Shown one piece after another: positions 4,628 through 47,943 of a stretch of DNA of 61,027 nucleotides (its first letter is position 1; each line of letters opens with the position of its first letter). The stretch is from assembly GCA_964569715.1 (NCBI GenBank), contig CAZMUD010000002.1:1-61027 (forward strand), written 5' to 3'. The DNA comes from an uncultured Dehalococcoidales bacterium. Its GTDB lineage: Bacteria; Chloroflexota; Dehalococcoidia; Dehalococcoidales; UBA2162. The position numbers and the translations under genes are program-made. Below the pieces are notes generated by a model. It searched no databases, was not told the origin of the DNA, and was given only the letters and a program-made list of their open reading frames with translations.

Positions 4628-4762
4628 CTATTAACTCTTCGTCCTTATCCGACTCTCCCAACTTCTCTACGCTCAAGTTTTACCTCAATACTTCCATTTT
4701 AGACTGCTGACATTTATTACTCATAAAGCTACCGTTAAAATCTCGTTAAAAATCACACAGTT

Positions 4763-4828
4763 TTGTGATTTCTTTTTGAGCTTCTGAGGTCTTTTTGTGA
4801 TGTGAATGTGAGTTGGCTCCCGTAACCT
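4763..4828 (+). promoter_or_regulatory. Direct-repeat operator plus -10 element (copy a) upstream of the OmpR-family regulator
   Basis: TTGTGAT boxes at 4763-4769 and 4795-4801, ATGTGAG at 4806-4812, then a 10-nt spacer and TAACCT at 4823-4828. Aligns without gaps to copies b, c and d. Confidence 0.6.
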
Positions 4829-4862
4829 GAAAGCAGATAAGGTGAAAGGACGGCTGCTACAA

Positions 4863-5558
4863 ATGGAGGACAGACCACGCATCATGGTGGTAGATGACGA
4901 CCGAGAGATGCTGCGGCTGCTTAAGCGTGTTTTTGAACTGGAAGGGTACGATGTTACCATAGCTGCCGACGGCAGTTCAGCACTAGCCCTGCTGGGAGAG
5001 TGTAAGCAAGACTTAGTTATCCTGGACATTGTGATGCCTGGTCCCGATGGTTATCAAGTTCTTGAGGCTATACGGCAAGGCTCTGATATTCCTGTAATCA
5101 TGCTCACCGCAAGGTGCGACGTGACCTCATTACACAAGGCTCTGGCGCTCGGTGCGGACGACTACGTGAAAAAGCCGTTCCGCCCGCTGGAACTTATGGC
5201 TCGCGTTCAGGCGAAGTTGAGGCGTGCCAAACACTGGGGCGAGCGTCTCGAACCTACATTCTATTCCCATGACCTCGTAATTGACTTTGTGAGACACAGG
5301 GTCACCTTAGGCAACAAAGAAGTGAAACTGACCGCTACCGAGTACAGGCTGCTATCCTATCTAGTACACAACGCTGGACAGGTCGTTACCCCTGACCAGA
5401 TTCTGAAGACGGTCTGGGGTGAGAAGCACAGCGGTGACAACCACCTTCTTCAGGTGAATATAGCTCGCCTCAGGCAGAAGCTAGGGGATGACGCCGGGAA
5501 CCCCAGTCACATCTTGACCAGACACGGCCAAGGATACATGGTTGTGAAGCAAACATGA
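4863..5558 (+). CDS. OmpR/PhoB-family response regulator (receiver + winged helix); no adjacent kinase
   Basis: Receiver motifs VVDDD and LVILDIVMPGPDG; the C-terminal LTATEYRLLSYL...GYM region is winged-helix type. The ATG at 4863 is preferred over the ORF-track GTG at 4842 (AAAGGA about 11 nt upstream, and the length then matches the 232-aa paralogs). Confidence 0.9.
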   Translation: MEDRPRIMVVDDDREMLRLLKRVFELEGYDVTIAADGSSALALLGECKQDLVILDIVMPGPDGYQVLEAIRQGSDIPVIMLTARCDVTSLHKALALGADDYVKKPFRPLELMARVQAKLRRAKHWGERLEPTFYSHDLVIDFVRHRVTLGNKEVKLTATEYRLLSYLVHNAGQVVTPDQILKTVWGEKHSGDNHLLQVNIARLRQKLGDDAGNPSHILTRHGQGYMVVKQT

Positions 5559-5600
5559 ACATATAGAGAACGTCCTTAAAGCAACACGATACTCATTAAA

Positions 5601-5638
5601 GGAGCCTTCCTAAAACCCGAAGGTTCTTCTTTTATTTT
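5601..5638 (+). terminator. Intrinsic terminator after the regulator gene
   Basis: Stem GGAGCCTTC / GAAGGTTCT with a 9-nt loop, followed by TCTTTTATTTT. Confidence 0.65.
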
Positions 5639-5670
5639 GCTCCCCCAGGGCATCTGAAGGTACTTTACAT

Positions 5671-5736
5671 CCGTGACCTTTTTGTGAGGTTTAACAGGTG
5701 TCTTGTGATACGGTTGTGATTCGGCTCCTCTATGAT
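5671..5736 (+). promoter_or_regulatory. Direct-repeat operator plus -10 element (copy b) upstream of the type IV pilus operon
   Basis: GTGA cores at 5673, 5684, 5705 and 5716 (spacing 11/21/11). TTGTGAT-ACGG-TTGTGAT, then a 10-nt spacer and TATGAT at 5731-5736. Confidence 0.6.
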
Positions 5737-5822: not shown

Positions 5823-6074
5823 GTGAACTTGGGAAGCAGGTTTGAGGAGTTGTATCCAGAATTTATGACTACTGGTTTTGTTGCCGAGCACTGCGGGGTC
5901 ACTAATGCAACAGTATTGCGGTGGATTGAAAAAGGGCGTCTGCCAGCGTTTAGGCTCCCAGACCGGCATTATCGGATACACAGGGAGGATTTCGTCGGAT
6001 TCCTAACAGAGTATAGTATACCAGTACATCGCGGAGCATCTGGTAACAAAAGGAGTGGTGGACATACACAATAA
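5823..6074 (+). CDS. Excisionase/MerR-like helix-turn-helix DNA-binding protein
   Basis: FVAEHCGVTNATVLRWIEKGRLPAFRLP...YRIHREDF matches the HTH_17 (excisionase-family) pattern. The start is uncertain (GTG 5823, TTG 5829 or ATG 5865). Confidence 0.7.
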   Translation: MNLGSRFEELYPEFMTTGFVAEHCGVTNATVLRWIEKGRLPAFRLPDRHYRIHREDFVGFLTEYSIPVHRGASGNKRSGGHTQ

Positions 6075-6211
6075 CGTGGGGAAAACAAGGGTTGGGAAAT
6101 GTAGGATAACGATATGGGTAAACATATCTGGATAGCTAAGTCAGAAAATATTTTAGGGGGTGAGTTATGAAAATAGTAAATGCAAGGAATAGAAAAAAAG
6201 GAGGTAGAACC

Positions 6212-6562
6212 ATGAACCGCTTTCTGAAAAGGTTTCAGCAGGACAATAAAGGCTTCACCTTGGTAGAACTACTTGTTGTCATCGGCGTTATGGCAATACT
6301 GGCATCTGTCGTTCTACTCAATGTCACCGGGGTCATTGGCGAGGGTGAAACAGAGGCAGCAGCGACCGAACTGGTAACCATCCAGACAGCCATGGATGTG
6401 ATGATGGCGAAGAATGACCTAAGTTCAGTGGCAGCTACTTCTTCAACCAATGATATGTCGACCTTTCCTACTGGAAACCCGTTATATCCAAACTATCTGC
6501 GGACGGAACTGACCTCGGCGAACTACTCCTGTAGCACTACTGGATTGGTTACACCAGACTAG
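6212..6562 (+). CDS. Type IV pilin (prepilin with N-terminal cleavage/methylation motif)
   Basis: Leader MNRFLKRFQQDNKG followed by FTLVELLVVIGVMAIL (G|FTLxE class III signal). AAGGAGG lies 7-8 nt upstream of ATG 6212; the ORF-track start at 6167 is probably too early. Confidence 0.88.
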   Translation: MNRFLKRFQQDNKGFTLVELLVVIGVMAILASVVLLNVTGVIGEGETEAAATELVTIQTAMDVMMAKNDLSSVAATSSTNDMSTFPTGNPLYPNYLRTELTSANYSCSTTGLVTPD

Positions 6563-6640
6563 CTACCGGCGGCTAGTAGTGTCCCAGCTAAATGTAAAAG
6601 GTTGATGACAAGTCTATAGCTCACACCGGGAGTGGTTCTC

Positions 6641-7015
6641 ATGGATAAGAAGATTTTAGTTATTGAAGACGACCCGGCTAGTTTGAGGCTCATGGTGTAC
6701 ACCCTCCAGCATGAGGGCTATCAAGTGATTACCGCAGCCAATGGACTGGAAGGACTGAGAAAAGCTTTGAAGGAGAAACCTGACCTTCTCATCCTAGATG
6801 TCATGCTGCCGGGTATAGATGGCTTTGAGGTTTGCCACCGTCTGCGTGCTGAATCTCAAACTGCCCATCTGCCTATTTTGATGCTCTCAGGCAAAGCGCA
6901 GGAAATAGATAAAGACACCGGGCTCAAGGTAGGAGCTGATGACTACGTCACCAAGCCGGTAAGTCCTTCAGAGACAGCAAGTCGGGTGAGGGCATTGCTG
7001 GCACAGCAAAAGTGA
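6641..7015 (+). CDS. Single-domain CheY-like response regulator embedded in the pilus operon
   Basis: KILVIEDD, LLILDVMLPGIDG and KVGADDYVTKP receiver motifs; no output domain. Confidence 0.88.
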   Translation: MDKKILVIEDDPASLRLMVYTLQHEGYQVITAANGLEGLRKALKEKPDLLILDVMLPGIDGFEVCHRLRAESQTAHLPILMLSGKAQEIDKDTGLKVGADDYVTKPVSPSETASRVRALLAQQK

Positions 7016-7097
7016 CCAGAACCCAAAAAGAGACAGGGGAACATGATTATTACTCAGCATAAACAATAAGGATTCCTCTTAAGCTCAGGAGAAAGGG

Positions 7098-8804
7098 TTG
7101 GACATAAACGAATCGGTAAGAGTTACTGACAAGGTACAACGCAAAAAACTGGGCGAAATGCTGGTCGAGGAGGACCTCATTACTGCTGAGCAATTAGAGA
7201 ATGCTCTGGAGTTGCAGCGGAGGCAGGGGGGGGAACTCAGTGAGGTCTTGGTAAACCAGGGGCTGGTCAAAGCTGAAGACTTGGCAGCAGTGCTCAGTGT
7301 CCAGCTGAATGTGCCTCTAATCGACTTCAAGAGGCACATGGTTCAACCCAACGCCCTGCGGTTAATCCCTCAAGATATGGCCAGGAAACACACCCTTATT
7401 CCTCTTGATGTGGTCGGTGATGTCCTAGTGGTGGTTATGGCTGACCCGGAGGATATCCGCACTATAGAGGACATCAAGGCTCAGGCTAAGATGAGGGTTG
7501 AGGTAGCCCTTGGTATTCCTGCTGATATTGAGCAAGCCATTGACCTTAACTACAGGTCTAGCGTTGAAATAGAGAAACAAGTAAGCCAGTTTGCACCTAC
7601 CGTCGAGGAAGAGGCTGAGGTTACCCCAGAGCTTATTGCCAGGACACCTATTGCTCAGAGTCTGGACTTAATCATGGCACAGGCAGTACGGGATAGAGCC
7701 TCGGATGTCCACCTTGAACCACAGGTGAATAGGCTACGGATACGCTACCGCATTGATGGTGTTCTGCATGATATGTTTTCCTTGCCACTGAGTGCTCACA
7801 TGCAACTGGTGTCCAGGGTTAAAATTCTGGCTGAGATGAACATTGCCGAGCAAAGACGCCCTCAGGATGGTCAATTCTCAATCAAGGTAGGTGATAGAGA
7901 TATTGACATTCGTGCTGCCACTATGGAAATGGCTTACGGGGAGAGACTAACATTGCGGATTCTGGATAAGTCTCTCTCTCTTTTCACCTTGCCTGAGCTG
8001 GGTCTCTTACCTGATGCTCTCGAGAAGTATCGGGCGATGCTGAACAGTCCCTTCGGTCTGGTACTGGTGGGCGGCCCTACTGGCTCAGGCAAAACGACCA
8101 CCCTTTATGCATCGATTAACCAGCTCGACCGAAACGAGCGTAATATCCTGACAATTGAGGACCCTATTGAGTACCGTTTTATGGACATCAATCAAACCCA
8201 GGTTAACTCTAAGGCTGGGATAACCTTTGCCAGTGGGCTGAGGTCTATCATGCGGCATGACCCTGATGTTATTCTGGTAGGCGAGATACGGGATAAAGAT
8301 ACGGCAACGACAGCAGTTCAAGCCGCTCTCACTGGACACCTGGTACTCTCTTCAATTCATGCCAATGATGCCGTTGGTGTGCTTTTCCGGTTAATGGACC
8401 TGGGTGTTGAGCCGTATCTTATCTCCTCGACGCTGGTTGGTATTGTTGCCCAGCGGATGGTTCGCCGTGTCTGTACTCACTGCCGTGCTCCCTCCCAACC
8501 CTCGGTGGAAGAGCAAGTAGCCTACGATGAGGAAATGAAGGAACAGCCAACTACCTTTTATAGCGCGGTAGGGTGTAACCTCTGCGCCAGCACTGGCTAC
8601 CGGGGACGGACAGGACTTTTTGAAATCCTAGTTATGAGTGAGAAAATCAGAAGGATGTCACTTAGCAATGACAGTGCCAGTGATATTAGAGCAGAGGCAC
8701 TCAGGGAAGGAATGGTAACCATGAAGCAAGATGGGATGCTGAAGGTAAAAGAGGGCACTACCTTGATAAGTGAGGTGCTACGCAGCGTTTTTTCCCTTGG
8801 CTGA
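7098..8804 (+). CDS. pilB: Type IV pilus assembly ATPase PilB/GspE family
   Basis: 568 aa. Walker A GPTGSGKTTT, Asp/His boxes, a C-terminal tetracysteine cluster (CTHC...CNLC) and an N-terminal MshEN/GSPII_E_N-like region. Confidence 0.93.
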   Translation: MDINESVRVTDKVQRKKLGEMLVEEDLITAEQLENALELQRRQGGELSEVLVNQGLVKAEDLAAVLSVQLNVPLIDFKRHMVQPNALRLIPQDMARKHTLIPLDVVGDVLVVVMADPEDIRTIEDIKAQAKMRVEVALGIPADIEQAIDLNYRSSVEIEKQVSQFAPTVEEEAEVTPELIARTPIAQSLDLIMAQAVRDRASDVHLEPQVNRLRIRYRIDGVLHDMFSLPLSAHMQLVSRVKILAEMNIAEQRRPQDGQFSIKVGDRDIDIRAATMEMAYGERLTLRILDKSLSLFTLPELGLLPDALEKYRAMLNSPFGLVLVGGPTGSGKTTTLYASINQLDRNERNILTIEDPIEYRFMDINQTQVNSKAGITFASGLRSIMRHDPDVILVGEIRDKDTATTAVQAALTGHLVLSSIHANDAVGVLFRLMDLGVEPYLISSTLVGIVAQRMVRRVCTHCRAPSQPSVEEQVAYDEEMKEQPTTFYSAVGCNLCASTGYRGRTGLFEILVMSEKIRRMSLSNDSASDIRAEALREGMVTMKQDGMLKVKEGTTLISEVLRSVFSLG

Positions 8805-8837
8805 CGATGCATAGTCAAACTCATGCTAGAGGGAATC

Positions 8838-10046
8838 ATGTCATATCAATATACAGCCTATACTCTCGATAAGCGGATTGTGCAGGGTGCGATTGATGCC
8901 ACTTCCGAAAGTATGGCTGAGGAAACCTTATACCGTGCAGGGTATCAGCGTGTCCTCAGCCTGAAAGAGGTACGCCCCGGCCTGAGCTTGGCAGAATTGA
9001 TGCCCACCTTCTTTGGGGTTAAAGCTCAGAGTGTGATTGATTTCTCGCAGCAGCTAGCCACCCTAGTCGAGTCCGGTATTGGTCTTCTCATTGCTTTGCA
9101 GCTGCTTGAGGGGCAGGCCTCTAAAGTTGCTCTCAAAAAAGTCATCGCTGGATTGATTGAGGAGCTTCAGAGAGGCATCTCACTTTCCCAGGCGCTCAGC
9201 AAGTACCCAAATGTATTCTCCTATACCTACTGCCAGGTGATAAGAGCCAGCGAGCAGGCAGGGAATCTTGAAGTCGGTCTCAGGCAGATAGCTGGCTACA
9301 TGGAAAAGCAGGCAGCAACGACGAAAAAATTGACACGCGCTATGTCATATCCCACCTTGGTTGTACTCATGGCAATCGGGGTTTTCGCCATAATGGTTAC
9401 TGTGGCTCTACCGCCGCTGGTTGGACTATTTACCTCACTTGGTGCTGAGTTACCCTGGACGACAAAACTAGTCATCGCTATGGCTAGTTTCCTCGGCAAC
9501 TATAAGCTGTACCTTCTAGGAGGACTACTTACCCTAATTATTTTAATCGTTGGCTACGTGAGGTTACCGGCCGGAAAACTAACCATGGACAGGTTGATGT
9601 TGAAGGCGCCGGTAGTTGGTTCTATCAATATACAACAAAATATGTACCGCTTCTGCCAGTCAACGTCAATGATGTTAAAAGCCGGGCTACAGTTGCCTAA
9701 CATAATGAATATCGTAATTGAAACCGTCGGGAACGGGATTATCCGCCAGGCATTACAGGATACCCGAGATAAACTGCTTCAGGGGCATAGTTTGTCTCAG
9801 TCGATGGCTGCCACTAACCTATTTCCCAAGCTTCTGGTGGAGATGATAGTCGTGGGGGAGAAGACGGGTAACCTGGACTCCACTCTCGCCACCCTTGCTG
9901 ATTTTTATGAACAGAGGGTTGACCAGAGGATTGATACCCTCATATCGATGATAGAGCCCGCTTTGACGCTAGGTATTGGGCTGGTGGTTGCCTTCATCGC
10001 CCTCTCAATGATAACGCCGATGTACTCCATACTGCAGTCTCTATGA
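8838..10046 (+). CDS. pilC: Type IV pilus platform protein PilC/GspF family
   Basis: Two GspF-type repeats and 3 TM segments. The ATG at 8838 has GAGGG upstream; the ORF-track start is 8823. Confidence 0.9.
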   Translation: MSYQYTAYTLDKRIVQGAIDATSESMAEETLYRAGYQRVLSLKEVRPGLSLAELMPTFFGVKAQSVIDFSQQLATLVESGIGLLIALQLLEGQASKVALKKVIAGLIEELQRGISLSQALSKYPNVFSYTYCQVIRASEQAGNLEVGLRQIAGYMEKQAATTKKLTRAMSYPTLVVLMAIGVFAIMVTVALPPLVGLFTSLGAELPWTTKLVIAMASFLGNYKLYLLGGLLTLIILIVGYVRLPAGKLTMDRLMLKAPVVGSINIQQNMYRFCQSTSMMLKAGLQLPNIMNIVIETVGNGIIRQALQDTRDKLLQGHSLSQSMAATNLFPKLLVEMIVVGEKTGNLDSTLATLADFYEQRVDQRIDTLISMIEPALTLGIGLVVAFIALSMITPMYSILQSL

Positions 10047-10465
10047 TAACTGGCTACGGTAGGTGTGAGAAGATGGTAAGGACAATAAAGCAATGGGTTG
10101 GAAAGGTAAAAGTCCGACTTCAAGATCAAAGAGGACTAAGTCTGGCTGAGTCTGTAGTCGCGGTTGCCATCATAGGGATCGCCGTGGTTGCTTTTGTAAC
10201 AGCACTATCAGCTGGGTCAATTGCAGCGCGTGAGGGAGGACAGGAAGTTGTAGCGCAGAGATTAGCGCGAACCCAGCTGGAATACATCAAAAGCTGTCCC
10301 TATGATACCACCTATTCTACAGTCGATACACCAGAAGGCTATACCATTTCTGTTGGGGTTGATTCTACCCCTGATAATGATGCTGACATTCAAAAAGTAA
10401 CGGTAACTATCTTCCGAGCTGGTGACAACATTACGGCAGTCGAGAACTATAAGGTGAACCGATGA
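10043..10465 (+). CDS. Minor pilin / pseudopilin-like protein
   Basis: RG|LSLAESVVAVAIIGIAVVAF prepilin-type N-terminus. ATGA overlap with the pilC stop. Confidence 0.7.
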   Translation: MITGYGRCEKMVRTIKQWVGKVKVRLQDQRGLSLAESVVAVAIIGIAVVAFVTALSAGSIAAREGGQEVVAQRLARTQLEYIKSCPYDTTYSTVDTPEGYTISVGVDSTPDNDADIQKVTVTIFRAGDNITAVENYKVNR

Positions 10466-10917
10466 TGAAGTGGCAGCGAGGGTTTACCTTAGTTGAACTG
10501 CTCGTATCCACTGCTATTACCGGCCTTATCCTTAGTGGACTGGGTACGGCTATCTACCAGATTATTACCGTTACCGAGTATGGCAACGATAGGCTAACAG
10601 CCATGCATGAGCTTCAAAACATGGCTCACTGGTTTAGCCTTGACGGGCAGAGGGCGAGCGCGGCAAGCGGCGGTAGCGAGCTGGTGCTTACTCTATCCGA
10701 CGACTCGTCAGTTACCTATACCGTGGTGGGCACTGAGCTTTACCGCACGGCTGATAGCTCAAATATGACGCTGGCACGGAACATCACCAGTGCTAACTTC
10801 TCCGTTGAAAACCGCTTTATCACCATGACCATAACCTCGTCCCCTCAGGGCAGATGGGGAGTGAGTGAGAATGGAACTTACAAGGTTTACCGCCGACTTA
10901 CAGAGGAGCAAGAGTGA
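10462..10917 (+). CDS. Minor pilin / pseudopilin-like protein
   Basis: QRG|FTLVELLVSTAITGLIL prepilin-type N-terminus. 4-nt overlaps with both neighbours. Confidence 0.8.
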   Translation: MMKWQRGFTLVELLVSTAITGLILSGLGTAIYQIITVTEYGNDRLTAMHELQNMAHWFSLDGQRASAASGGSELVLTLSDDSSVTYTVVGTELYRTADSSNMTLARNITSANFSVENRFITMTITSSPQGRWGVSENGTYKVYRRLTEEQE

Positions 10918-12215
10918 TGGATGGCGAAAAAGGACAGGTTCTTCCTCTAGCCCTGGTTGCTCTGGCTATTGGCTCAATGGTCATAACGCCCTTCATCAGT
11001 CACGCCAGCAGCAGCCTTATTGGCTCTCGAATCTACGGGCAGGCGATAGCCGAGCAATACTCTGCTGACGCCGGGGTGGAGCACGCTATCTGGCGCCTGA
11101 CCGACGGTGGTCTCGCAGATGAGTTGCCTTCCCCGGGAGACAACACTATCTATCAGGTGAGTGAAACGGTTAACGGCGTAGCACCTAGCATCACGGTGAC
11201 CAGAGATATGGTGACTATAGCCAGCGATGACTTCGAGAGCGTGGGTTGGTCCGGTGGTAGTGGCTGGCTTGATGCCTGGTATTACGAGGGTGATGCAAGT
11301 ATTGTAACTGAGAGAAGCCCTTACCAGGGAAGCTACCACCTACGGCTGAGAAGAAGTAACGGATATGTAAAGCGGGCCGTTGACCTTTCTGGCTATTCCA
11401 GCGCCAGCCTCCAATTCTGGGCCAAGACTAGGTCATTTGAGCGTGGTGAAGAAGCAAGGTGTTTGGTCAGCTCCAACGGGGCCGACTGGACGGTAGTTAA
11501 GACCTGGATAAATGGAGATGACGACAATACCTATTACTTCTACGAGATTGATTTGTCTTCGTACACGCCCTCCAGTGAGTTCTGGATTGCCTTTCAGGCT
11601 GATATGTCAGGGACAGGAGACCAGCTTTATGTTGACGACCTGAAGGTGGTAAGTGTGTTCACTGGTGCTGCCCTGGGATTGCCGAGCGACGACTTCGAAA
11701 GTGGCGGTTGGTCTGGAGGTTCAAGCTGGCTGTATGGCTGGTATCACGAGGGCACTTCGCAGGTCACAAGTAGTGGTAACCCTTATGAAGGAAACTACCA
11801 CCTGAGAATGAGGAGAGGGAATAGCTATGTGGACCGGGCGGCGGATTTATCCGGCCAGTCTAACCTCCGCCTCCAGTTCCGGGCTAAGGTGAGTTCTTTT
11901 GAAGGTAGCGACTCTATGGAGTGCCTGGTAAGCTCTGATGGCGAGACCTGGACTACCGTCCAGACCTGGACCAGCGCCGATAGTGATAATACTTATCACT
12001 TCTGTGACATCGACTTATCGCCCTACACCATGTCCAGTGAGTACTGGGTTGCCTTCCAGTCGGGGATGAACAACAGGAATGATTATTTCTACGTTGATGA
12101 CCTGAAGATAACAGCGCCTTTTGTCGTCTACCAGATTGTATCTACCGTCGGCGACAGAACTATCAGAGCCGTCGTTAAAATTTCGGACACAACCGTTTCT
12201 ATTCTCTCGTGGTAG
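10914..12215 (+). CDS. Pilus-operon protein with a hydrophobic pilin-like N-terminus and two tandem ~154-aa beta-rich (CBM/MAM-like) modules
   Basis: N-terminus KGQVLPLALVALAIGSMVI (no Glu5). Internal repeats start at DDFESVGWSGGSGW (nt 11226) and DDFESGGWSGGSSW (nt 11688), and each ends in YVDDLK. Confidence 0.75.
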   Translation: MMDGEKGQVLPLALVALAIGSMVITPFISHASSSLIGSRIYGQAIAEQYSADAGVEHAIWRLTDGGLADELPSPGDNTIYQVSETVNGVAPSITVTRDMVTIASDDFESVGWSGGSGWLDAWYYEGDASIVTERSPYQGSYHLRLRRSNGYVKRAVDLSGYSSASLQFWAKTRSFERGEEARCLVSSNGADWTVVKTWINGDDDNTYYFYEIDLSSYTPSSEFWIAFQADMSGTGDQLYVDDLKVVSVFTGAALGLPSDDFESGGWSGGSSWLYGWYHEGTSQVTSSGNPYEGNYHLRMRRGNSYVDRAADLSGQSNLRLQFRAKVSSFEGSDSMECLVSSDGETWTTVQTWTSADSDNTYHFCDIDLSPYTMSSEYWVAFQSGMNNRNDYFYVDDLKITAPFVVYQIVSTVGDRTIRAVVKISDTTVSILSW

Positions 12216-12244
12216 GTGGAATAGTATGAGCGCAGGAGACACTG

Positions 12245-12805
12245 GTGAAGGGTAAGTTAATGATTACGCTCGTAGTAATTGCTTCAGTAGTAGTCTACGC
12301 TTATTTCGGCATGGGCTATATGAAACAGCGCAATGAGCGTGAGGTGCTGATTTCCCATATTACCGACGTCAGCCAAACACTTGCCCAAATGCCCAAGCCT
12401 CCGCAGGACCTGGAGCAGCGATTAGCAGCTGCTCAGGCTAGTCTGGCTGCCGAGCAAGGTACATTCCCCGGCAAGATGAACAGCACCCATATCATCAATA
12501 GCATTCTCAAGCTGGCCGATGACTGCGATGTTAAAGCCATCCCTTTGATAACTCGACCGTGGTCAATAGAGAATGTTGGGAAATATGGCTATCATGTTTT
12601 CCGGTTAGATGTAACCGTTGAGGGAAGTTTCTCACAAGTGGTCAGTTTCGTTAGCAAATTGGAAAATGGGGAGTTTAGGACACTTATCGTGGAGGACCTG
12701 AGTGTCACCAGGGTTACCGAACAGTCCGAAGGAGAAACTGTTACCGAGGGAATCATGGCTAGCTTGGGTCTGGCTATCTATACGCAGTCTGCGGCTTCTG
12801 AGTAG
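12245..12805 (+). CDS. PilO-like pilus biogenesis protein
   Basis: N-terminal TM helix, a coiled segment, and a C-terminal VTVEGSFSQVVSFVSKLENG pattern typical of PilO. Confidence 0.7.
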   Translation: MKGKLMITLVVIASVVVYAYFGMGYMKQRNEREVLISHITDVSQTLAQMPKPPQDLEQRLAAAQASLAAEQGTFPGKMNSTHIINSILKLADDCDVKAIPLITRPWSIENVGKYGYHVFRLDVTVEGSFSQVVSFVSKLENGEFRTLIVEDLSVTRVTEQSEGETVTEGIMASLGLAIYTQSAASE

Positions 12806-12827
12806 AGGCGAAGGGTTTGTTTACATA

Positions 12828-14306
12828 ATGTATGCAACGCTAAATATCAGTGCCACCAGCATGAGGCTCCTCTCCGTGGAGGGAAGTCGGGTAAAGAAGT
12901 GGGGGGATGTATCTCTCGCACCGGAGCTGGTCAGGGATGGACTCATTTTACAGCCGAAAGCGGTAGGGGCAGTCATCGACGACCTGTTTGAATCAATGAA
13001 AGTCCCTAAGGAGCGAGTTATCATTACCCTGACTGGCTTGTCCTTTACTTACCGCATCCTGAGCTTGCCCCGGATGAAGCCCGACCTTTTAGAGGAGGCT
13101 ATCCTGCGGGGGGCAAAGAGAGAAATACCACTGCCTCTAGAGGAACTTTACCTTTCATGGCAAGCTATCGGTAGTAAAGACGATGAGATGGATTTCTTTG
13201 TTTTAGGTGTGCCGCGGAATCTTATTGATGCCATGGTTCAGACGCTGGAAGAGGCTGGAGTGAAGCCTTATATCATGGGTCTGAAGCCGCTGGCATTGGC
13301 TAGAGCAGCCAATCGAGGAGATGCCCTAATAGTAGATTTGGAGCCCGATTGTTTCGATATTGTTCTAGTAGCTAATGGTATTCCCGCTATTATGCACACA
13401 ATAACTCCAAGAGGGGAAGGGGCGGATATAGAGGACAACATTCGGCGGCTGGCAGACGAGTTGTCAAAAACAGTAAAGTTCTATAACAGCAGCCACCCAG
13501 AAAACCTTCTTAGTCCAACCACACCTTTGTTGCTGACTGGAGAGCTCTCAACCAATGCCACCGCCAGCAAGATTATCCAAGCCGAGATAGAATACCCAGT
13601 CGAGCCCTTAGTTCCACCACTGGAATTCCCTACGGACTTACCTATTGCTTTATATGCAACCAATATGGGGCTTGCTCTTAAAAAGGTGCCATGGAAGCAA
13701 GGATTAAAAGGAGATGCTACCCGTTTCCACGATATAAACCTTAATATATTGCCTGGTAAAAAAGAAGCTAGAGCCTTCTCAGTATCAATACGAAACATAC
13801 TTCTCACTCTGGCTTTAATAATTATTATTGGTCTCCTATCTCCTCTGTACTTGGTTAAGAGTCAAGCTGATGCTGAAACTGTGCGATTGCAAGCTGAGTT
13901 GAGTGGCGTTAGCCAGGAACTCCGTCAAGCTCGGCTCGCTATCGATGAGGCAAAGCAAATCGAGGACACTATAAATGAAATAGCAGCCGATGTGGAAACC
14001 CTGAAACAGGAGCATCAAGGCATTCTCAGCAAAGAAGATAACTTCGCCAGCAAACTGACATTGGTTACCGATGCCCTTCCATCTGGAGCGCATTTCACCT
14101 ATATAGAGGTAGGAACTGGCCAGCTCACTGTAAAGGGTGAAGCTGATAGCTCCTTCACGGTCATCAGCTACGCAATGGCTTTGGAGTCACAAGGGGTGTT
14201 CCCTGAAGTTCGCGTTGCTGAGATTGGTGAGAATAGGAGTACTGAAGATGAGACCACAGAGGTGGAGAGCAGTGGAGTATTCTTCACAATTATTATTAGC
14301 TTCTAA
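12828..14306 (+). CDS. PilM-PilN fusion protein (actin-like ATPase fold + TM/coiled-coil PilN-like part)
   Basis: MYATLNISATSMRLLSVEG... is a PilM-type N-terminus. A TM helix (ILLTLALIIIIGLL) and coiled coil follow. The ORF-track start at 12702 overlaps pilO and is unlikely. Confidence 0.8.
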   Translation: MYATLNISATSMRLLSVEGSRVKKWGDVSLAPELVRDGLILQPKAVGAVIDDLFESMKVPKERVIITLTGLSFTYRILSLPRMKPDLLEEAILRGAKREIPLPLEELYLSWQAIGSKDDEMDFFVLGVPRNLIDAMVQTLEEAGVKPYIMGLKPLALARAANRGDALIVDLEPDCFDIVLVANGIPAIMHTITPRGEGADIEDNIRRLADELSKTVKFYNSSHPENLLSPTTPLLLTGELSTNATASKIIQAEIEYPVEPLVPPLEFPTDLPIALYATNMGLALKKVPWKQGLKGDATRFHDINLNILPGKKEARAFSVSIRNILLTLALIIIIGLLSPLYLVKSQADAETVRLQAELSGVSQELRQARLAIDEAKQIEDTINEIAADVETLKQEHQGILSKEDNFASKLTLVTDALPSGAHFTYIEVGTGQLTVKGEADSSFTVISYAMALESQGVFPEVRVAEIGENRSTEDETTEVESSGVFFTIIISF

Positions 14307-41929: not shown

Positions 41930-42457
41930 CTAATCTACAGTCAGGTAAAACCGGGGAGAAAGGCTACCTCCATCAACATCGGTGTTAGTGCAGTAAAAAC
42001 TGCCGCTATCAATGGTGATTTTGTATTTTGCATACCCCGATAGGGTGAAGCTCACCCGAGCATCGTGCAATGTAATGAAGGTATCGGGAATCGGTGCGCT
42101 GCCACCCATAGATACCTTCTCCCACTGACCAGCATTACTCTCGACATAGCCCCCCACCTTGAGGATTAGGTAGCGATAGTAGTGGGAAAGTTCTTGCGTG
42201 TTGGTGAGATACAGGGTGACCTCGATGTCAGCAGTGTTACTGGTAGCGTCAATGTAGAAGAGGTCACCGGGGGTAGTGACGCCGCCGATTGCTCTTCGGA
42301 ATACGGTCCAAGTTGGTGCTGCTGAAGCTTCAGCGACCTCTATCCGGACTGTCTCCTGTCCAATCACGCCATCGCTTACATCATGGGCGAAGGCTACCGG
42401 CCAAGGGGCGAGCAGTAATACGGCTAAAAGGGGAAACATCTTCTTAATGAAGTGCAT
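41930..42457 (-). CDS. Secreted protein of unknown function (signal peptide; beta-rich)
   Basis: MHFIKKMFPLLAVLLLAPWPVAFA signal. AAGGGGG lies 8 nt upstream of ATG 42457. The ORF-track start at 42484 would overlap the predicted -10 element. Confidence 0.7.
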   Translation of the reverse strand: MHFIKKMFPLLAVLLLAPWPVAFAHDVSDGVIGQETVRIEVAEASAAPTWTVFRRAIGGVTTPGDLFYIDATSNTADIEVTLYLTNTQELSHYYRYLILKVGGYVESNAGQWEKVSMGGSAPIPDTFITLHDARVSFTLSGYAKYKITIDSGSFYCTNTDVDGGSLSPRFYLTVD

Positions 42458-42483: not shown

Positions 42484-42549
42484 AGTCTAGGGAGGCCGAC
42501 TCACAACCATATCACAAGGCGTGTCTGAACCCTTACAGAGAAATCACAA
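42484..42549 (-). promoter_or_regulatory. Direct-repeat operator plus -10 element (copy c) upstream of the secreted-protein gene
   Basis: Reverse strand: TTGTGAT...TTGTGAT-ATGG-TTGTGAG, 10-nt spacer, TAGACT. Same 66-nt architecture as copies a, b and d. Confidence 0.6.
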
Positions 42550-42578: not shown

Positions 42579-42790
42579 CTACCCGGCTGTTACCTCGGCA
42601 CGCTTTAGCTTTGCCTGAATGCGAGCCACAAGTTCCCGTGTGCGGAACGGCTTTCTCACGTAGTCGTCCGCACCGAGCGCCAAAGCCTTATGCAGTGAGG
42701 TCACTTTGCACCTTACGGTGAGCATAATATCCAGGATAACTAAATCTGGCTTACACTCTTTCAGTATGGCTAGTGCTGAGCTGCCGTTGG
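42579..42790 (-). pseudogene. Receiver-domain fragment of a decayed OmpR-family regulator (paralog of 4863..5558), part B
   Basis: Reverse translation ...VANGSSALAILKECKPDLVILDI/MLTVRCKVTSLHKALALGADDYVRKPFRTRELVARIQAKLKRAEVTAG*. High DNA identity to 4960-5235, with a 69-bp internal deletion and no winged-helix domain. Confidence 0.8.
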
Positions 42791-43566
42791 CTACTATGTG
42801 CTTATGAAGGAGGGTTACTATCTGGTCAGGTCTTCTGCTGCATTATGTAGCCTATTCCTGACTTAGTCAGTATATATTTGGGGTTCTTGGCGTCGTCCTT
42901 TAGCTTCTGCCTAAGTCGGGCCATATTTACCTGAAGCAGGTGGGCCTCGCCGATATATTCCTCCCCCCACACCGTCTCTATTATCTGGTCAGGGGTAACC
43001 ACCCGGCCGGCGTTGTGTATCAGGTATGCTAGCAGCCTGTACTCGGTAGCGGTTAAATTCACTTCCTGGCTACTTACGGTGACCTTGTGTCGGACAAAGT
43101 CTATCACCAAGTCTTGGAAAGAGAAAGCTGGCTCGGGATGCTCATCCCAGAGCCTAGTGCGGCGCAGCACTGCCCTCACTCGAGCCACCAGTTCGTTGGA
43201 AGAGAAGGGCTTGGTCACATAGTCGTCAGCTCCGGCATCTAGCCCTTGGACTTTTTCTTCGTCACCGTTCTTGGCGGTAATCATAATTATTGGTAGCTGC
43301 GAAAATTCGCGAATGTTCCGACACACGGTATATCCGTCTATATCAGGCAACATAATGTCCAGCAACACCAGTTCTGGGGTTTTCTCATCAAATATATCCA
43401 GAGCAGCTACCCCGTTGCTGGCGGTGAGTACGCAGTAGCCCTCAAGCTCCAGCATACGCTGCAACATGCGCAATATGTGAGTATCGTCATCGACCACTAG
43501 CACCGACACTTTTCTTGATGGCATGTTAATATCACCTTTTCTGATGCAGGATGCGGGTAACAGCTT
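42789..43566. repeat. Direct repeat copy 1 (778 bp)
   Basis: Matches 43786..44563 at a 997-bp offset, with a single mismatch seen (43551 A vs 44548 G). Confidence 0.9.
42826..43524 (-). CDS. OmpR/PhoB-family response regulator, duplicate copy 1
   Basis: 232-aa product identical to that of 43823..44521. Confidence 0.9.
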   Translation of the reverse strand: MPSRKVSVLVVDDDTHILRMLQRMLELEGYCVLTASNGVAALDIFDEKTPELVLLDIMLPDIDGYTVCRNIREFSQLPIIMITAKNGDEEKVQGLDAGADDYVTKPFSSNELVARVRAVLRRTRLWDEHPEPAFSFQDLVIDFVRHKVTVSSQEVNLTATEYRLLAYLIHNAGRVVTPDQIIETVWGEEYIGEAHLLQVNMARLRQKLKDDAKNPKYILTKSGIGYIMQQKT

Positions 43567-43568
43567 GC

Positions 43569-43613
43569 CTACTTGGTCATCTCTACCACCATGATGTATG
43601 GGCGGCTCTTCAT
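43569..43613 (-). pseudogene. 5' fragment (14 codons) of the decayed regulator paralog, part A
   Basis: Reverse strand ATGAAGAGCCGCCCATACATCATGGTGGTAGAG... parallels ATGGAGGACAGACCACGCATCATGGTGGTAGAT... of the 4863 gene. The stop falls exactly at the repeat junction. Confidence 0.7.
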
Positions 43614-43647: not shown

Positions 43648-43713
43648 AGACTACGGTAGCCATCTCACATTTACATCAAGAAGAGGCCTCAAAACCTCAC
43701 AAAGAAATCACAG
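43648..43713 (-). promoter_or_regulatory. Direct-repeat operator plus -10 element (copy d)
   Basis: Reverse strand: CTGTGAT-TTCT-TTGTGAG...ATGTGAG, 10-nt spacer, TAGTCT. About 80% identical to copy a, including the downstream leader. Confidence 0.55.
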
Positions 43714-43785: not shown

Positions 43786-44563
43786 GGCTACTATGTGCTT
43801 ATGAAGGAGGGTTACTATCTGGTCAGGTCTTCTGCTGCATTATGTAGCCTATTCCTGACTTAGTCAGTATATATTTGGGGTTCTTGGCGTCGTCCTTTAG
43901 CTTCTGCCTAAGTCGGGCCATATTTACCTGAAGCAGGTGGGCCTCGCCGATATATTCCTCCCCCCACACCGTCTCTATTATCTGGTCAGGGGTAACCACC
44001 CGGCCGGCGTTGTGTATCAGGTATGCTAGCAGCCTGTACTCGGTAGCGGTTAAATTCACTTCCTGGCTACTTACGGTGACCTTGTGTCGGACAAAGTCTA
44101 TCACCAAGTCTTGGAAAGAGAAAGCTGGCTCGGGATGCTCATCCCAGAGCCTAGTGCGGCGCAGCACTGCCCTCACTCGAGCCACCAGTTCGTTGGAAGA
44201 GAAGGGCTTGGTCACATAGTCGTCAGCTCCGGCATCTAGCCCTTGGACTTTTTCTTCGTCACCGTTCTTGGCGGTAATCATAATTATTGGTAGCTGCGAA
44301 AATTCGCGAATGTTCCGACACACGGTATATCCGTCTATATCAGGCAACATAATGTCCAGCAACACCAGTTCTGGGGTTTTCTCATCAAATATATCCAGAG
44401 CAGCTACCCCGTTGCTGGCGGTGAGTACGCAGTAGCCCTCAAGCTCCAGCATACGCTGCAACATGCGCAATATGTGAGTATCGTCATCGACCACTAGCAC
44501 CGACACTTTTCTTGATGGCATGTTAATATCACCTTTTCTGATGCAGGGTGCGGGTAACAGCTT
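43786..44563. repeat. Direct repeat copy 2 (778 bp)
   Basis: See copy 1. Confidence 0.9.
43823..44521 (-). CDS. OmpR/PhoB-family response regulator, duplicate copy 2 (last gene of the kinase/receiver operon)
   Basis: VLVVDDD, LVLLDIMLPDIDG and a winged-helix LTATEYRLLAYL...GYIM. Confidence 0.92.
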   Translation of the reverse strand: MPSRKVSVLVVDDDTHILRMLQRMLELEGYCVLTASNGVAALDIFDEKTPELVLLDIMLPDIDGYTVCRNIREFSQLPIIMITAKNGDEEKVQGLDAGADDYVTKPFSSNELVARVRAVLRRTRLWDEHPEPAFSFQDLVIDFVRHKVTVSSQEVNLTATEYRLLAYLIHNAGRVVTPDQIIETVWGEEYIGEAHLLQVNMARLRQKLKDDAKNPKYILTKSGIGYIMQQKT

Positions 44564-44918
44564 CCCTCAGGCTGGCGGCACTCAGGGGCTTGACCAGGTA
44601 GTCGCTGGCACCCATACTGAGCGCCTTCTCCCGCTGTGATACTCCAGCCGAGGCAGTGAACACGATTACAGGTATTGCCTCGAGTCCTGGCTTACTCTTA
44701 ATCTGCCGCAGCACTACCCAGCCATCGCGTCTGGGTAGCCTCAGGTCCAGCAGCAGGAGACTGATCCGGCCCTCTCTTATCAATCTCATGCCCTCCTTGG
44801 TGTCCTTAGCCTGAAGAACGTGGTAGCCTTCCAGCTCGAGCACCCGGGAGGCAAAGTGAAGGATCTCAGCCTCGTCTTCTATGATAAGGATTCTCTTTGT
44901 TTCAGGTGTCTTTTCCAT
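44529..44918 (-). CDS. Single-domain CheY-like response regulator
   Basis: ILIIEDE, LLLLDLRLPRRDG and MGASDYLVKP. Confidence 0.88.
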   Translation of the reverse strand: MEKTPETKRILIIEDEAEILHFASRVLELEGYHVLQAKDTKEGMRLIREGRISLLLLDLRLPRRDGWVVLRQIKSKPGLEAIPVIVFTASAGVSQREKALSMGASDYLVKPLSAASLREAVTRTLHQKR

Positions 44919-47145
44919 GTCCCTGTCCGGCTGCGTTAGTTACGAGCGGAAGGGTAAAGCGAAAAGTGCTTCCCTTTCCCAGTTCGCTCTCTACCCAGAT
45001 GCGGCCGCCATGAGCCGTTATCAGTCCCTTGCAGATGGCCAGCCCTAGCCCTATGCCTCCCATCTCTGGAGTCAGTCTTTGCTCAATGCGGTACATCCGG
45101 TCGAACACCATCCCTAGTTCATGGCTAGGGATGCCTATGCCTTGGTCAGCCACGCTGATTAGCAATTCCTGCCCCGCTCGTTGCGCCGATACCACTACTT
45201 CTGATTCCTTGTCAGAATACTTGACGGCGTTGTCGATGATGTTGTCCAGCACCTGCCTAATGCGCCGGGCATCAACCTCCACCGTTGGTAGTCTCTGTCT
45301 CTCGTCGGTCTCTATCTTATGCCTGGGTGCCCTGAGCTTAGCCTCAGCCGCCGCCTCCTGGATTAGCTGTGAGATATTGGTGGGCTGTTTATCCAGTTTC
45401 AGCAGCCCTGCCTCCAGCCGGGACATGTCCAGGAGATGGTCAATAAGCTCGGTCAACCGGTCGGTGGCTCTGTCTATGGACTGCAAGTGCTCCTTTTTCT
45501 CCTCAGACCTGAGCCTCCGGTCATAATCCACAAGCATGGTGGAATACCCCTTGATGATTGCTAGGGGAGTGCGTAGCTCATGGGAGACTGTGGAAAGAAG
45601 GTTGCTCTTAAGTCTGTCTAACTCCTCATATTCAACCACTCTCTCCTCTGCTCGCTTTTGCTCGGTGATGTCTATGAAGTTTGCCAGAGCTGCACGTTTT
45701 CCTTCATACTGAATGGACCTAATTGTCCCTAGAGCCCACCTTATCTCACCACTCTTGCTAATATACCTGAACTCGTAAGGGGAAAGACGTTTCCCTTTCA
45801 ACATTTCTATTGCGCTTTCTCTGACTGTCTCCCTATCTTCAGGGTGGAGAATGTTCAAAGAGAGCCTGTCCAACACCTCGCTTTCAGCATAGCCTGTCTG
45901 GTCGAGGAACCGCCTATTAACAAACTTAATCTTACCGTCCTGAACAATGTGAATGCTAACCGGCGAGCTGTTGGTTAGCACTCTGTACAGCTCCTCCATC
46001 TGCTTGCGCTCGGTGATGTCCCGGATAAAAGCAACATTGGCACGCTCCCCCTTGTATGTCGTATAGGCACTGGTAAGCTCAATGGGAACCTCGGTGCCAT
46101 CTTTCCTGATAATGGACATCTCGAAAAGTCCCGGCATAATTGCACCCCGCATCTTTTTTCCATGTCTTTCTAGAGAAGCCTGGCGGTGTGAGGGGTGGAC
46201 GAGGTCGAAAAACGACATACTGAGCAGCTCTTTCTTAGAGTAGCCGGTGATGCGGGGCCACTCATCGCTAACGAAGGTTTGGGTGGCGTGTCCCTGCTCA
46301 TTGTCCTGCAGCATGACAACAGCCTCACCGACTTCGGCACCCAGATTCACCAGGGCGCGGTATCTCTCCTCGCTCTCCTGCAGTGCCTCCTCTGCATGCT
46401 TGCGCTCGGTGATATCGCGAAAAAGCCCAAATATTAACCGCTTTTCTCCAATGGTAACGGGGGCCGCGCTGATGCTTACTAGGACAATGCTGCCATCCTT
46501 CCTGATAGCCTCACCATCATAATTCGCAGCATGTCCCTTCTTAGCATGGGTTGCGAACCTCTGGCGATACTCGTCAGCCTTTTCTGGGGGGTGAAGCTTG
46601 CTTTGGTGCATGCCGATAATCTCCTCATGAGTACGACCTATCAGCACCTCGCCCTGCTCGTTCGCGTCGAGGATACGTCCGGTTTCCACATCCGCCAGGA
46701 ACGCCGCGTCATTCATGTTCTTAAAAAGAGCTCTATATCTCTCCTCTGACTCCCGTAAGGCCTCCTCCGCCCACCTGCGCTCAGCTACCTGTGTGATAAG
46801 AGCTAGAAGGTGGTCCATATCAAGCGGCTTGGTCTCATAGGCTATTATATGTCTCTGCCCGACAGCTTCGATAGCAGTCTCTAGCGAAGCATAACCAGTG
46901 TTGATGATATACTCCATTCCAGGGGATAGTCTGGCTAACTTCTTTATTAGCTTTACCCCAGATATGTCAGGCAGCTTGAGGTCGATAAGCGCCAGTTCAA
47001 ATGTCTTCTCCTGACAGAGAGTGAACGCTGTCTGGCCATCCCCGGCAAGCGCAGTATCGTAACCTTCCGCTTCCAGAATATCCCGCAGGTTTGAAGCGAG
47101 GTCCACATCATCATCCACAATGAGTATGTCAAACTTTAGGGCCAT
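44902..47145 (-). CDS. Receiver-PAS(x3-4)-HisKA-HATPase sensor histidine kinase
   Basis: N-terminal receiver (ILIVDDD, LALIDLKLPDISG), repeated PAS blocks each followed by ITERK, an H-box SHELRTPL, and N/G boxes (DNAVKY, DQGIGI, GGIGLGL). Confidence 0.9.
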   Translation of the reverse strand: MALKFDILIVDDDVDLASNLRDILEAEGYDTALAGDGQTAFTLCQEKTFELALIDLKLPDISGVKLIKKLARLSPGMEYIINTGYASLETAIEAVGQRHIIAYETKPLDMDHLLALITQVAERRWAEEALRESEERYRALFKNMNDAAFLADVETGRILDANEQGEVLIGRTHEEIIGMHQSKLHPPEKADEYRQRFATHAKKGHAANYDGEAIRKDGSIVLVSISAAPVTIGEKRLIFGLFRDITERKHAEEALQESEERYRALVNLGAEVGEAVVMLQDNEQGHATQTFVSDEWPRITGYSKKELLSMSFFDLVHPSHRQASLERHGKKMRGAIMPGLFEMSIIRKDGTEVPIELTSAYTTYKGERANVAFIRDITERKQMEELYRVLTNSSPVSIHIVQDGKIKFVNRRFLDQTGYAESEVLDRLSLNILHPEDRETVRESAIEMLKGKRLSPYEFRYISKSGEIRWALGTIRSIQYEGKRAALANFIDITEQKRAEERVVEYEELDRLKSNLLSTVSHELRTPLAIIKGYSTMLVDYDRRLRSEEKKEHLQSIDRATDRLTELIDHLLDMSRLEAGLLKLDKQPTNISQLIQEAAAEAKLRAPRHKIETDERQRLPTVEVDARRIRQVLDNIIDNAVKYSDKESEVVVSAQRAGQELLISVADQGIGIPSHELGMVFDRMYRIEQRLTPEMGGIGLGLAICKGLITAHGGRIWVESELGKGSTFRFTLPLVTNAAGQGHGKDT

Positions 47146-47157
47146 TCTATTATCCCC

Positions 47158-47943
47158 TCATTGGCTATCCCGTAAATTCCATTCAGGTTTTTTGAGAATG
47201 CCCTTGGCTTTCTGTTCCTTAATCTGCTCAAGCAGGGAAACCAGCTCGCCCATGTCTATTGGCTTCTCCAGGCAGGCATAGGCGTTCTTTTGCAGCGCCT
47301 GCTGTGCCAGCTTAGCCATCTTCTGCGGATAGCCAGTGATGATAATTACCACCACATTCGGCCGGAAATCGCGGATGGCCAGGTAAGTCTCCATGCCATT
47401 CAGGGCAGGCAGTTTCATATCAATGAGCATGACATCAAAGTTGTCCTTCTTTGCCTTCTCTATTGCCGTGTTACCATCGTAGGCAACGTTTACCCGGTAG
47501 CCTTTATCGCTCAGCACATCTTGCATATTGGCACAGAGATTCTCATCGTCATCTACTATGAGTATCAGCTCCCCGTTGGGAGTGGCTTGTTCAATAAGTT
47601 CAAAGATTTCGTCAAAGTCCAGTGGTTTCTTGAGGGAACCAAAGGCTCCCTCCCGCAGTGCCTCTCTGATGAGGTTCTCAACAGCAAAGGCGGTTACCAT
47701 AATGACCGGGGTATCCGGCGCTATCTTTTTGACCTTCTTGAACGTTTCCACGCCGTCCATTACCGGCATCTTGACATCCATCAGCACCAGGTCAAAGCCA
47801 TTTTGTTTCACCAGCTCCAGTGCCTTGAATCCATCATAGGCAGTCACCACCTCATAATCCTTCAGTTCCAGAATATCGGTCACGTTCCGGCAGAACTCCT
47901 CGTTATCGTCAACAACCAGTATTCTTGATTTTTCAGGCACCAT
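47158..47943 (-). CDS. Tandem double-receiver protein (REC-REC)
   Basis: Two complete receiver domains, each with the DD pair and phospho-acceptor Asp (LVLMDVKMP; VMLIDMKLP). Confidence 0.88.
   Translation of the reverse strand: MVPEKSRILVVDDNEEFCRNVTDILELKDYEVVTAYDGFKALELVKQNGFDLVLMDVKMPVMDGVETFKKVKKIAPDTPVIMVTAFAVENLIREALREGAFGSLKKPLDFDEIFELIEQATPNGELILIVDDDENLCANMQDVLSDKGYRVNVAYDGNTAIEKAKKDNFDVMLIDMKLPALNGMETYLAIRDFRPNVVVIIITGYPQKMAKLAQQALQKNAYACLEKPIDMGELVSLLEQIKEQKAKGILKKPEWNLRDSQ

Follow-up and report, generated by a model that had tools for sequence, protein, structure and literature searches.

Putative OmpR-type four-box promoters link regulator, type IV pilus and secreted-protein genes in a Dehalococcoidales genome

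The stretch of DNA analysed here (61,027 nt, hereafter the window) is a part of contig CAZMUD010000002.1 (assembly GCA_964569715.1) from an uncultured Dehalococcoidales bacterium of the phylum Chloroflexota. It contains four copies, a to d, of a 66-nt module preceding genes for OmpR-type regulators, a type IV pilus and a secreted protein. An earlier note on this DNA had described four segments aligning without gaps, and realignment in the window confirmed both their positions and the absence of gaps. Pairwise identity among the modules is 37-53 of 66 positions. All four copies carry TGTGA-like boxes at module positions 2-6, 13-17, 34-38 and 45-49, with GTGA cores starting at positions 3, 14, 35 and 46 (11/21/11 phasing), and a TAnnnT hexamer at positions 61-66, exactly 10 nt past the last 6-mer. 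The box-pair consensus is TTGTGAy-N4-TGTGAG and the -10 consensus is TAnnCT. Some boxes are degenerate: box 2 is TTTGA in copy a and TGTAA in copy c, and box 3 of copy d is CTTGA.

Module a (4763..4828, plus strand) has its boxes at 4764-4768 (TGTGA), 4775-4779 (TTTGA), 4796-4800 and 4807-4811 (both TGTGA) and a -10-like TAACCT at 4823-4828. It ends 34 nt upstream of the start codon of regA (4863..5558, plus strand), coding for an OmpR-family regulator (Pfam Response_reg and Trans_reg_C) with the helix NHLLQVNIARLRQKL; no kinase gene is adjacent to it, in line with its earlier description as an orphan. regA is followed by a terminator-like hairpin with a T-run and then by module b (5671..5736, plus strand; -10-like TATGAT at 5731-5736), located 86 nt upstream of an HTH_17 gene which opens a pilus operon. 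Module c (42484..42549, minus strand; -10-like TAGACT at 42489-42484) precedes a gene for a secreted protein (41930..42457, minus strand), as had been claimed, and ends 26 nt 5' of its ATG. Module d (43648..43713, minus strand; -10-like TAGTCT at 43653-43648) lies 3' of the terminator (43779-43755) of R2 (43823-44521, minus strand), a further OmpR-type regulator gene (Pfam) with the helix AHLLQVNMARLRQKL. An identical module d is present in L087, an independent NCBI genome.

The pattern TGATN5TGTGAN3GGC occurs 4 times in the window against an expectation of 0.31, and none of 100 shuffles reached 4 occurrences. Seven of the eight matches to TGTGAN6TGTGA (up to one mismatch) lie within the modules, and a matrix scan of the full window found exactly four modules and no extra half-modules. 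A fifth site at 49262-49277 was considered and rejected, having one box pair only and scoring below the threshold with every matrix. Its TTGTGA is separated by a 17-nt spacer from a perfect TATAAT (49295-49300) and faces an MFS gene (49475-50620), and because of this spacing the candidate was taken for an ordinary -35/-10 promoter; judged by its elements, the region 49272-49300 is a canonical sigma-70-type promoter resembling half of a module.

A CRP-type site (TGTGA-N6-TCACA) was rejected too: the boxes are direct repeats, and their sole inverted partner forms an everted TCACA-N6-TGTGA by module a. This everted palindrome, AAATCACAcagtttTGTGATTT (window 4750-4772), combines box 1 of module a with an inverted box just upstream. 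It is kept in the related locus L085 and shows one change in L086; in copy d the TCACA is located 11 nt further off than in module a. The palindrome may serve the divergent DUF5658 gene (4301-4627).

Scanning of metagenomes with a partial pattern (18 of the 66 positions fixed) has found at least 120 stretches representing at least 117 distinct modules; the module counts given below hold among the matches listed. A conservation profile was built from 75 modules with enough flanking sequence. Positions left free by the search are near-invariant at T2 (71/75), G3 (72/75), G14 (74/75) and T61 (65/75), followed by C65 (55/75), T34 (54/75) and T45 (53/75), and the spacers and flanks are nearly informationless. 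A62 and T66 belonged to the fixed pattern, yet they are invariant in all ten protein-anchored examples. The four boxes together with T61, A62 and T66 thus make up a profile that looks like a protein footprint and not like a repeat family. The dispersed repeat or mobile element named as an alternative by the earlier note was not seen, only the box cores being conserved and the spacers random. Position 65 (e.g., 4827 and 5735 in the window), with its C in 55 of 75 modules, may reflect the sigma factor of the phylum or a requirement specific to the regulator.

The modules are located in intergenic regions, co-oriented with the downstream gene. No same-strand open reading frame (ORF) contains a module, and for 112 of 119 modules an ORF in the module orientation starts within 350 nt downstream. 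A position matrix was constructed without the window, from 111 unrelated metagenome modules; it gave 46.5, 50.7, 49.2 and 44.6 bits to modules a, b, c and d, respectively, versus a maximum of 8.9 bits in 100 simulated 61-kb windows. As a negative control we used 79 OmpR loci of other lineages and phyla (910 kb) obtained by a genome-contig search with regA, which gave almost only generic OmpR regulators of other phyla and was useless for orthology. These loci contained no matches of 10 bits or more, compared to four at 46-54 bits in the window. The module is not confined to this genome; it represents a type of promoter that occurs throughout the phylum Chloroflexota. Since the partial pattern recovers at least 117 modules with essentially no false positives, the regulon can be read directly from metagenomes.

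The modules are associated with a particular subfamily of OmpR-type regulators. The recognition helix (A/N)HLLQVN(M/I)ARLRQKL is common to regA, R2 and R3 (a duplicate of R2 described below); the whole R2 family, which is large and about 75% identical across its members, carries the signature, and for the subfamily it can be written as HLLQVN(M/I/V)ARLRQKL. Only 3 of 120 database matches are closer to regA than to R2, so regA is a lineage-specific paralogue of the R2 family. Module a is kept upstream of regA orthologues with 70% (L085) and 66% (L086) identity, and module b is kept 3' of regA in L086 and partly, at a contig end, in L085. Loci fetched by similarity to a regulator or to the secreted protein, independently of the motif, nearly all have modules beside HLLQVN regulator genes, as seen in L085, L086, L087, L088, L090, L013, L214, L216 and L218. 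There are two modules each in L088, L090 and L013; those of L214 and L216 score about 20 bits, and that of L218 scores 42 bits. L013 is the only one of 80 generic genome loci to encode the HLLQVN helix, and it is also the only one with modules. GC-richer modules are accompanied by a related soil regulator family of 242 aa with the helix HMLQVNINRLRHKIE and more than 6000 matches, one named member being MDQ2887980.1 of a Chloroflexota bacterium.

The earlier note attributed the modules to one of the OmpR-family regulators in the window. Subfamily regulators do adjoin the modules, but the single regulator cannot be named: as regA and R2 share their recognition helix, the sequence cannot tell which of them occupies the modules of the window. 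regA and R2/R3 may compete or cooperate at these sites.

We consider it probable, at about 75%, that the modules of the four window units are regulator-dependent promoters bound by the HLLQVN subfamily of OmpR regulators and working by pho-box-style activation. An OmpR/PhoB direct-repeat operator that replaces the -35 element and ends 10 bp 5' of the -10 had been proposed from the window, and all comparative tests run agree with it. At least two repeats with about 11-bp spacing are present without gaps in modules a to d and in at least 117 metagenome modules. The proximal pair occupies the -35 place 10 bp 5' of the -10, the latter identified by consensus only, and an OmpR-family regulator that can be regarded as cognate co-occurs with the modules, none of which was found in the 79 control OmpR loci. 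No TTGACA-like hexamer is located 16-18 nt from the conserved -10, and the module-bearing intergenic regions contain no canonical -35/-10 promoter in the right orientation.

Each module would then be a complete regulator-dependent promoter with two direct-repeat box pairs. As the boxes are 11 bp apart and the pairs about three helical turns apart, all four boxes would lie on one side of the DNA. Each pair would be occupied by a head-to-tail dimer of an OmpR-family regulator, with R2, R3 and regA as the candidates in the window. The proximal pair would end 10 bp 5' of the -10 (TAnnCT), standing in for the missing -35, and since it takes the -35 place, class II activation of the pho-box style is the most likely mode. 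The phosphorylated regulator would recruit RNA polymerase to start transcription about 7 nt past position 66, the input presumably coming from the PAS/hybrid kinase cluster upstream of R2. Module a would serve regA itself in a positive autoregulatory loop, module b the HTH_17-pilin-PilB-PilC type IV pilus operon, module c the operon of the secreted CanA/TasA-like protein, and module d the duplicated regulator R3, creating a second positive feedback loop. Given the pilus operon and the CanA-like model of the secreted protein, the output looks like surface appendages. Binding, the binding paralogue, the transcription start and activation rather than repression are what we infer here.

Several observations weigh against this assignment. 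In L212, which encodes a regulator of the soil family, the 10 kb to each side of the regulator gene contain no module, L213 has only weaker and distant sites, and the site 3' of the regulator in L216 is degenerate; judging from L212 and L213, adjacency of regulator and module is not universal. A family regulator gene is directly upstream of only 6 of the 74 modules with enough upstream sequence, so that adjacency links motif and regulator for a minority of sites only. The -10 is assigned by consensus only, and the conserved C65 is foreign to canonical TATAAT. The modules within the window are pairwise paralogues; the window alone therefore overstates their independence and could not prove function. 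Finally, the proximal pair could also serve repression, as it would span about -40 to -23 counted from the presumed start.

An operator of this kind, occluding a promoter, seems rather unlikely to us, although the OmpR-family regulator ArcA does repress through multi-repeat sites (PMC3798270). The lack of a -35-like hexamer 16-18 nt from the -10 is typical of activator-dependent promoters, and the distance from box 4 to the -10 is strictly fixed, which is required by contact between protein and polymerase and not by occlusion.

BldC binds direct repeats cooperatively, and the boxes could in principle be bound by an HTH_17/excisionase-like (BldC-like) protein assembling head-to-tail instead of OmpR regulators. 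The first gene after a module often codes for an HTH_17 protein (8 of 112, among the most frequent classes), as is also the case after module b, and the HTH_17 protein of the window has a weak, sub-threshold match to the BldC family. However, a scan of the flanks of 12 family-anchored loci, ten of which have modules (nine at 19.7-54 bits, L213 weaker and distant) and one of which, L212, has none, detected no HTH_17 homologue. HTH_17 binding is unlikely for this reason, and we give it only a slim chance. Besides, in almost all lineages retrieved through a protein the modules directly adjoin HLLQVN regulator genes. Pairs of boxes that repeat every 11 bp and keep a constant distance from the -10 are the signature of OmpR/PhoB dimers. 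A recurrent target is the better explanation for the HTH_17 gene.

It is very improbable that the similarity of the modules is a mere by-product of segmental duplication of a regulator gene with its flanks, with no operator function. Such duplication has certainly left traces in the window: the pairs a/d and b/c are recent paralogues inside longer homologous blocks, b and d are both located 3' of the terminators of paralogous regulators with similarity reaching upstream of the module, and a 762-nt block is duplicated at 100% identity. Neutral DNA, however, would not keep four 5-mers and TAnnnT in exact register with randomised spacers, as seen in at least 117 modules of unrelated contigs and between regA orthologues of only 66-70% protein identity. 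Modules are also found far from regulator genes, in front of Usp, hemerythrin, OsmC, FtsH and other genes.

A structured RNA leader or the end of a mobile element (MITE-like, i.e., resembling a miniature inverted-repeat transposable element) is hardly credible in spite of the many dispersed copies, at times several per locus: Rfam matched none of the modules and only two tRNAs in the window, the modules fold less stably than their own shuffles (z from +0.47 to +1.85), have no terminal inverted repeats or target duplications, conserve only the 5-mer cores, are intergenic and co-oriented with the downstream gene, and with TAnnnT at the 3' end most of the module would not be transcribed.

The promoter reading invites comparison with several well-studied systems. 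The pho box consists of 7-bp direct-repeat units with 4-bp spacers (11-bp period) and acts in the class II, -35-replacing mode. The modules resemble the pho box of Escherichia coli PhoB in this 7-bp plus 4-bp arrangement and in the orientation of the repeats towards the gene, with a closely similar core, TTGTGAT in place of CTGTCAT. As in PhoB promoters, the proximal pair ends 10 bp 5' of the -10 with no -35, and a second pair lies upstream, as in pstS. Unlike in the pho box, the core is TGTGA and not TGTCA, the pairs are 21 nt apart from start to start and not contiguous, and the 66-nt layout is rigid across a phylum. A Pho regulon proper was rejected both by the regulators and by the targets: the PhoB equivalog model TIGR02154 scored R2 at 206.9 and regA at 173.3 against a cut-off of 296.2, and among 112 downstream genes there was one PhoU-domain match and no pst gene. 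The term "pho-box-like" is thus apt for the geometry but does not extend to a phosphate regulon.

The closest solved structures to R2 are RegX3, MtrA, KdpE and Mycobacterium tuberculosis PhoP (E of 1e-46 for PhoP). PhoP of M. tuberculosis binds direct repeats of the 7-mer TCACAGC (complement GCTGTGA), between which the spacer is strictly 4 bp (PMC4832192). The modules share with the PhoP site (PDB 5ED4), which is bound by a tandem dimer, the TGTGA core and the 7-bp motif with the 4-bp spacer. The base-contacting residues N212, V213, E215, S216, Y217 and Y220 of PhoP, aligned by eye, are not kept in HLLQVNMARLRQKL, so a shared reading head does not account for the similarity of the cores. PhoP also differs in its regulon and lacks a fixed layout of four boxes.

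WalR/VicR (YycF), MtrA and RpaB provide the best NCBIfam matches of both R2 and regA. Orthology was rejected, since R2 scored 237 against a cut-off of 330 for RpaB, 229 against 300 for MtrA and 223 against 340 for YycF, and regA scored lower. WalR/VicR binds TGTWAH-N5-TGTWAH (PMC4168254). This operator was rejected for the modules, as in boxes 2-4 a G stands at the fourth base in 67-75 of the 75 modules, a count to be read with the search in mind, which fixed this G in boxes 3 and 4 and allowed A or G in box 2 (box 1, left free, was not counted). The divergent modules of L214 and L216 carry TGTTAT and TGTAAT boxes. The recognition helix of R2/regA, the regulon and the kinase partners all differ from those of WalR, MtrA and RpaB.

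ArcA sites consist of 2-5 direct repeats with 11- or 22-bp spacing (PMC3798270). The modules are similar in having multiple direct repeats one or two helical turns apart. ArcA operators are plastic and mostly repressive, whereas the modules are invariant and keep a constant distance to the -10. Known regulators of type IV pili include PilS-PilR acting with sigma-54 (NtrC-type) and AlgR (LytTR-type). The circuit proposed here from sequence would share with them the two-component control of a pilin or pilus operon, and would differ in the OmpR-type regulator, the sigma-70-like -10 and a Chloroflexota pilus operon starting with an HTH_17 gene.

No motif of this kind described for Chloroflexota or Dehalococcoidia was found in the literature searched; given its incomplete coverage, the result amounts to no more than absence of evidence. 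Within the searchable literature, the regulon, the rigid four-box layout and its spread in Chloroflexota appear undescribed. The kind of element, an OmpR/PhoB-type direct-repeat promoter, is well known; what is new is a regulon and its breadth, not a principle.

R2 is the last gene of a kinase-linked regulator cluster (43823..49209, minus strand; Pfam). The cluster comprises genes for a histidine kinase (47944-49209), a double receiver (47158-47943), a PAS hybrid histidine kinase (44902-47145), a single receiver (44529-44918) and R2 itself, all transcribed from the minus strand and assigned by Pfam. The order histidine kinase - single receiver - R2 is kept in L088, L090, L214, L216 and L218 and throughout the R2 family, as would be expected of a three-component relay or a phosphate sink. 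Genes for small receivers are often found among the targets of the four-box promoter, too. A recurrent chain was seen in L100, L167 and L088, where a module is followed by a single-domain receiver gene, a second module and a gene for an HTH_17 protein or an S8 peptidase.

The operon downstream of module b (5823..14306, plus strand) is supported by Pfam and includes the HTH, pilin and pilB genes claimed earlier. It begins with the HTH_17/excisionase-like gene (5823-6074), followed by genes for a prepilin (6167-6562), a CheY-like receiver (6632-7015), the ATPase PilB (7098-8804), PilC (8823-10046), minor pilins (10043-10917), a protein without an assigned family in the Pfam scan (10914-12215), a PilO/T2SSM-like protein (12245-12805) and a PilM-PilN fusion (12702-14306), all on the plus strand and, save the unassigned one, recognised by Pfam. 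No secretin gene was found among the ORFs scanned. The conserved placement of the module in front of pilus genes recurs in L124, where a module is followed by genes for HTH_17 (60%), prepilin (44%) and, further downstream, PilB (85%) and PilC; no regulator gene was found in the 1.7 kb of this contig upstream of the module.

The product of 41930..42457 is a 175-aa protein with a signal peptide ending in ...PWPVAFA/HD, as read from the sequence. It has no Pfam or NCBIfam match at E of 0.001 or below and belongs to a conserved uncharacterised family (558 homologues). Its AlphaFold2 model (pLDDT 80.5, pTM 0.74) is a jelly-roll, for which the top five Foldseek hits were CanA/Hyper2 (E from 1e-6 to 1e-5, probability 1.00, TM 0.47-0.57); 7ueg was also matched. 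The jelly-roll fold and a Sec signal peptide are shared with CanA of Pyrodictium and with filaments of the TasA superfamily, including TasA-like bundling pili; sequence membership in Pfam Peptidase_M73 was not found. By its predicted fold the protein models as a CanA/TasA-like fibre subunit, and it may be a bacterial donor-strand fibre subunit. In a published survey, CanX homologues were limited to Pyrodictiaceae, and most CanX-like proteins came from Thermoproteota.

A module is located 5' of a homologue of the secreted-protein gene in L013, L087, L092, L119 and L218, the order regulator - module - homologue being found on independent contigs. In L218 the order is histidine kinase, single receiver, R2-type regulator, terminator, module, secreted protein and receivers, and this layout is probably ancestral. 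The proposal that an OmpR-type regulator is linked to both the pilus and the secreted protein and regulates itself thus gains computational support, the pilus link recurring in L124 and the secreted-protein link in these five loci.

The arrangement of regulators and modules in the window bears traces of duplication. The similarity of a and d extends over a 131-nt block (77%; 4764-4894 and 43582-43712) running into the start of an OmpR-type gene, and b and c are each located 3' of regA-type coding sequences that are 84-86% identical to each other; a/d and b/c are recent paralogue pairs. The cassette [module]-regA-[module]-target was therefore duplicated as a unit. On the minus strand the order is now R2, terminator, module d, a 5' relic, an inserted block, a 3' relic, module c and the secreted-protein gene. 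The 5' relic of the second regA copy, regA' (43582..43612, minus strand), is frameshifted and runs into a stop after 14 codons. The 3' relic (42597..42798, minus strand) matches regA 4958-5033 and 5097-5228 at 84-86%, has an internal deletion and adjoins the 5' side of module c. The block inserted into regA' (42789-43550) repeats 43786-44547 at 100% identity along its 762 nt and includes the last codons of the receiver gene, the ribosome-binding site of R2 and a complete copy of R2. This intact copy, R3 (42826..43524, minus strand), is 100% identical to R2. One copy of regA was thus destroyed by insertion of an R2 copy. The junctions of the insertion show microhomology (CATAGTAGCCGAC and CATAGCTGCCGAC).

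A perfect 762-nt duplicate could have been an assembly artefact; this was ruled out by the independent genome L087, in which the regulators are arranged in tandem in the same way. R2 and R3 do not differ in the window, differ at 2 of 699 nt in L087 and differ by 17-18 nt between the two genomes. Being alike within genomes and different between them, they seem to be kept alike by gene conversion, which indicates concerted evolution. The relic of a regA paralogue described after copy d is indeed present, but it is not what the module would now drive, as the first intact gene downstream of module d is R3. The locus offers a clean natural example of a regulator-plus-operator cassette duplicating and decaying, with the remnant operator re-used for a fresh copy of a regulator.

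Among the matches listed from soil Chloroflexota, the modules are followed by genes for Usp (9), HTH_17 (8), hemerythrin (4), OsmC (4), 2-oxoacid dehydrogenase E2 (4), FtsH, Hsp20 and PNPOx-like proteins, and GC-richer soil loci (metagenome loci L092-L211) add PHB synthase and baeRF-family proteins. The regulon of soil Chloroflexota thus looks stress- or dormancy-like and is probably controlled by the family of 242-aa regulators.

Tentatively, we suggest that the HLLQVN OmpR subfamily might be a master regulator of Chloroflexota acting through a rigid four-box promoter with a rewired regulon: stress or dormancy genes (Usp, hemerythrin, OsmC, Hsp20, FtsH) in soil lineages and surface appendages in marine and subsurface Dehalococcoidia. 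In the latter a pilus for which no secretin gene was found would be co-regulated with a cannula/TasA-like fibre, and the system would amplify itself via gene-converted duplicates placed behind their own promoter. To our knowledge, such fibres have so far been described only in archaea and Firmicutes. Transcriptional control is almost unknown in Chloroflexota, least of all in the largely uncultured Dehalococcoidia, and the module gives a specific handle on it. Through it, a defined two-component cluster is connected with a type IV pilus operon and with a fibre-like secreted protein, yielding hypotheses on attachment, aggregation or DNA uptake.

Two other duplications were observed in the window. 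A 273-nt tandem duplication (38606-39151, 93% identical) is located within a gene for a 571-aa CARDB-domain protein 3' of the secreted-protein operon. In addition, two paralogous molybdopterin oxidoreductase genes (9-2327 and 22364-24799) share long stretches of 71-80% nucleotide identity at an offset of about 22.4 kb.

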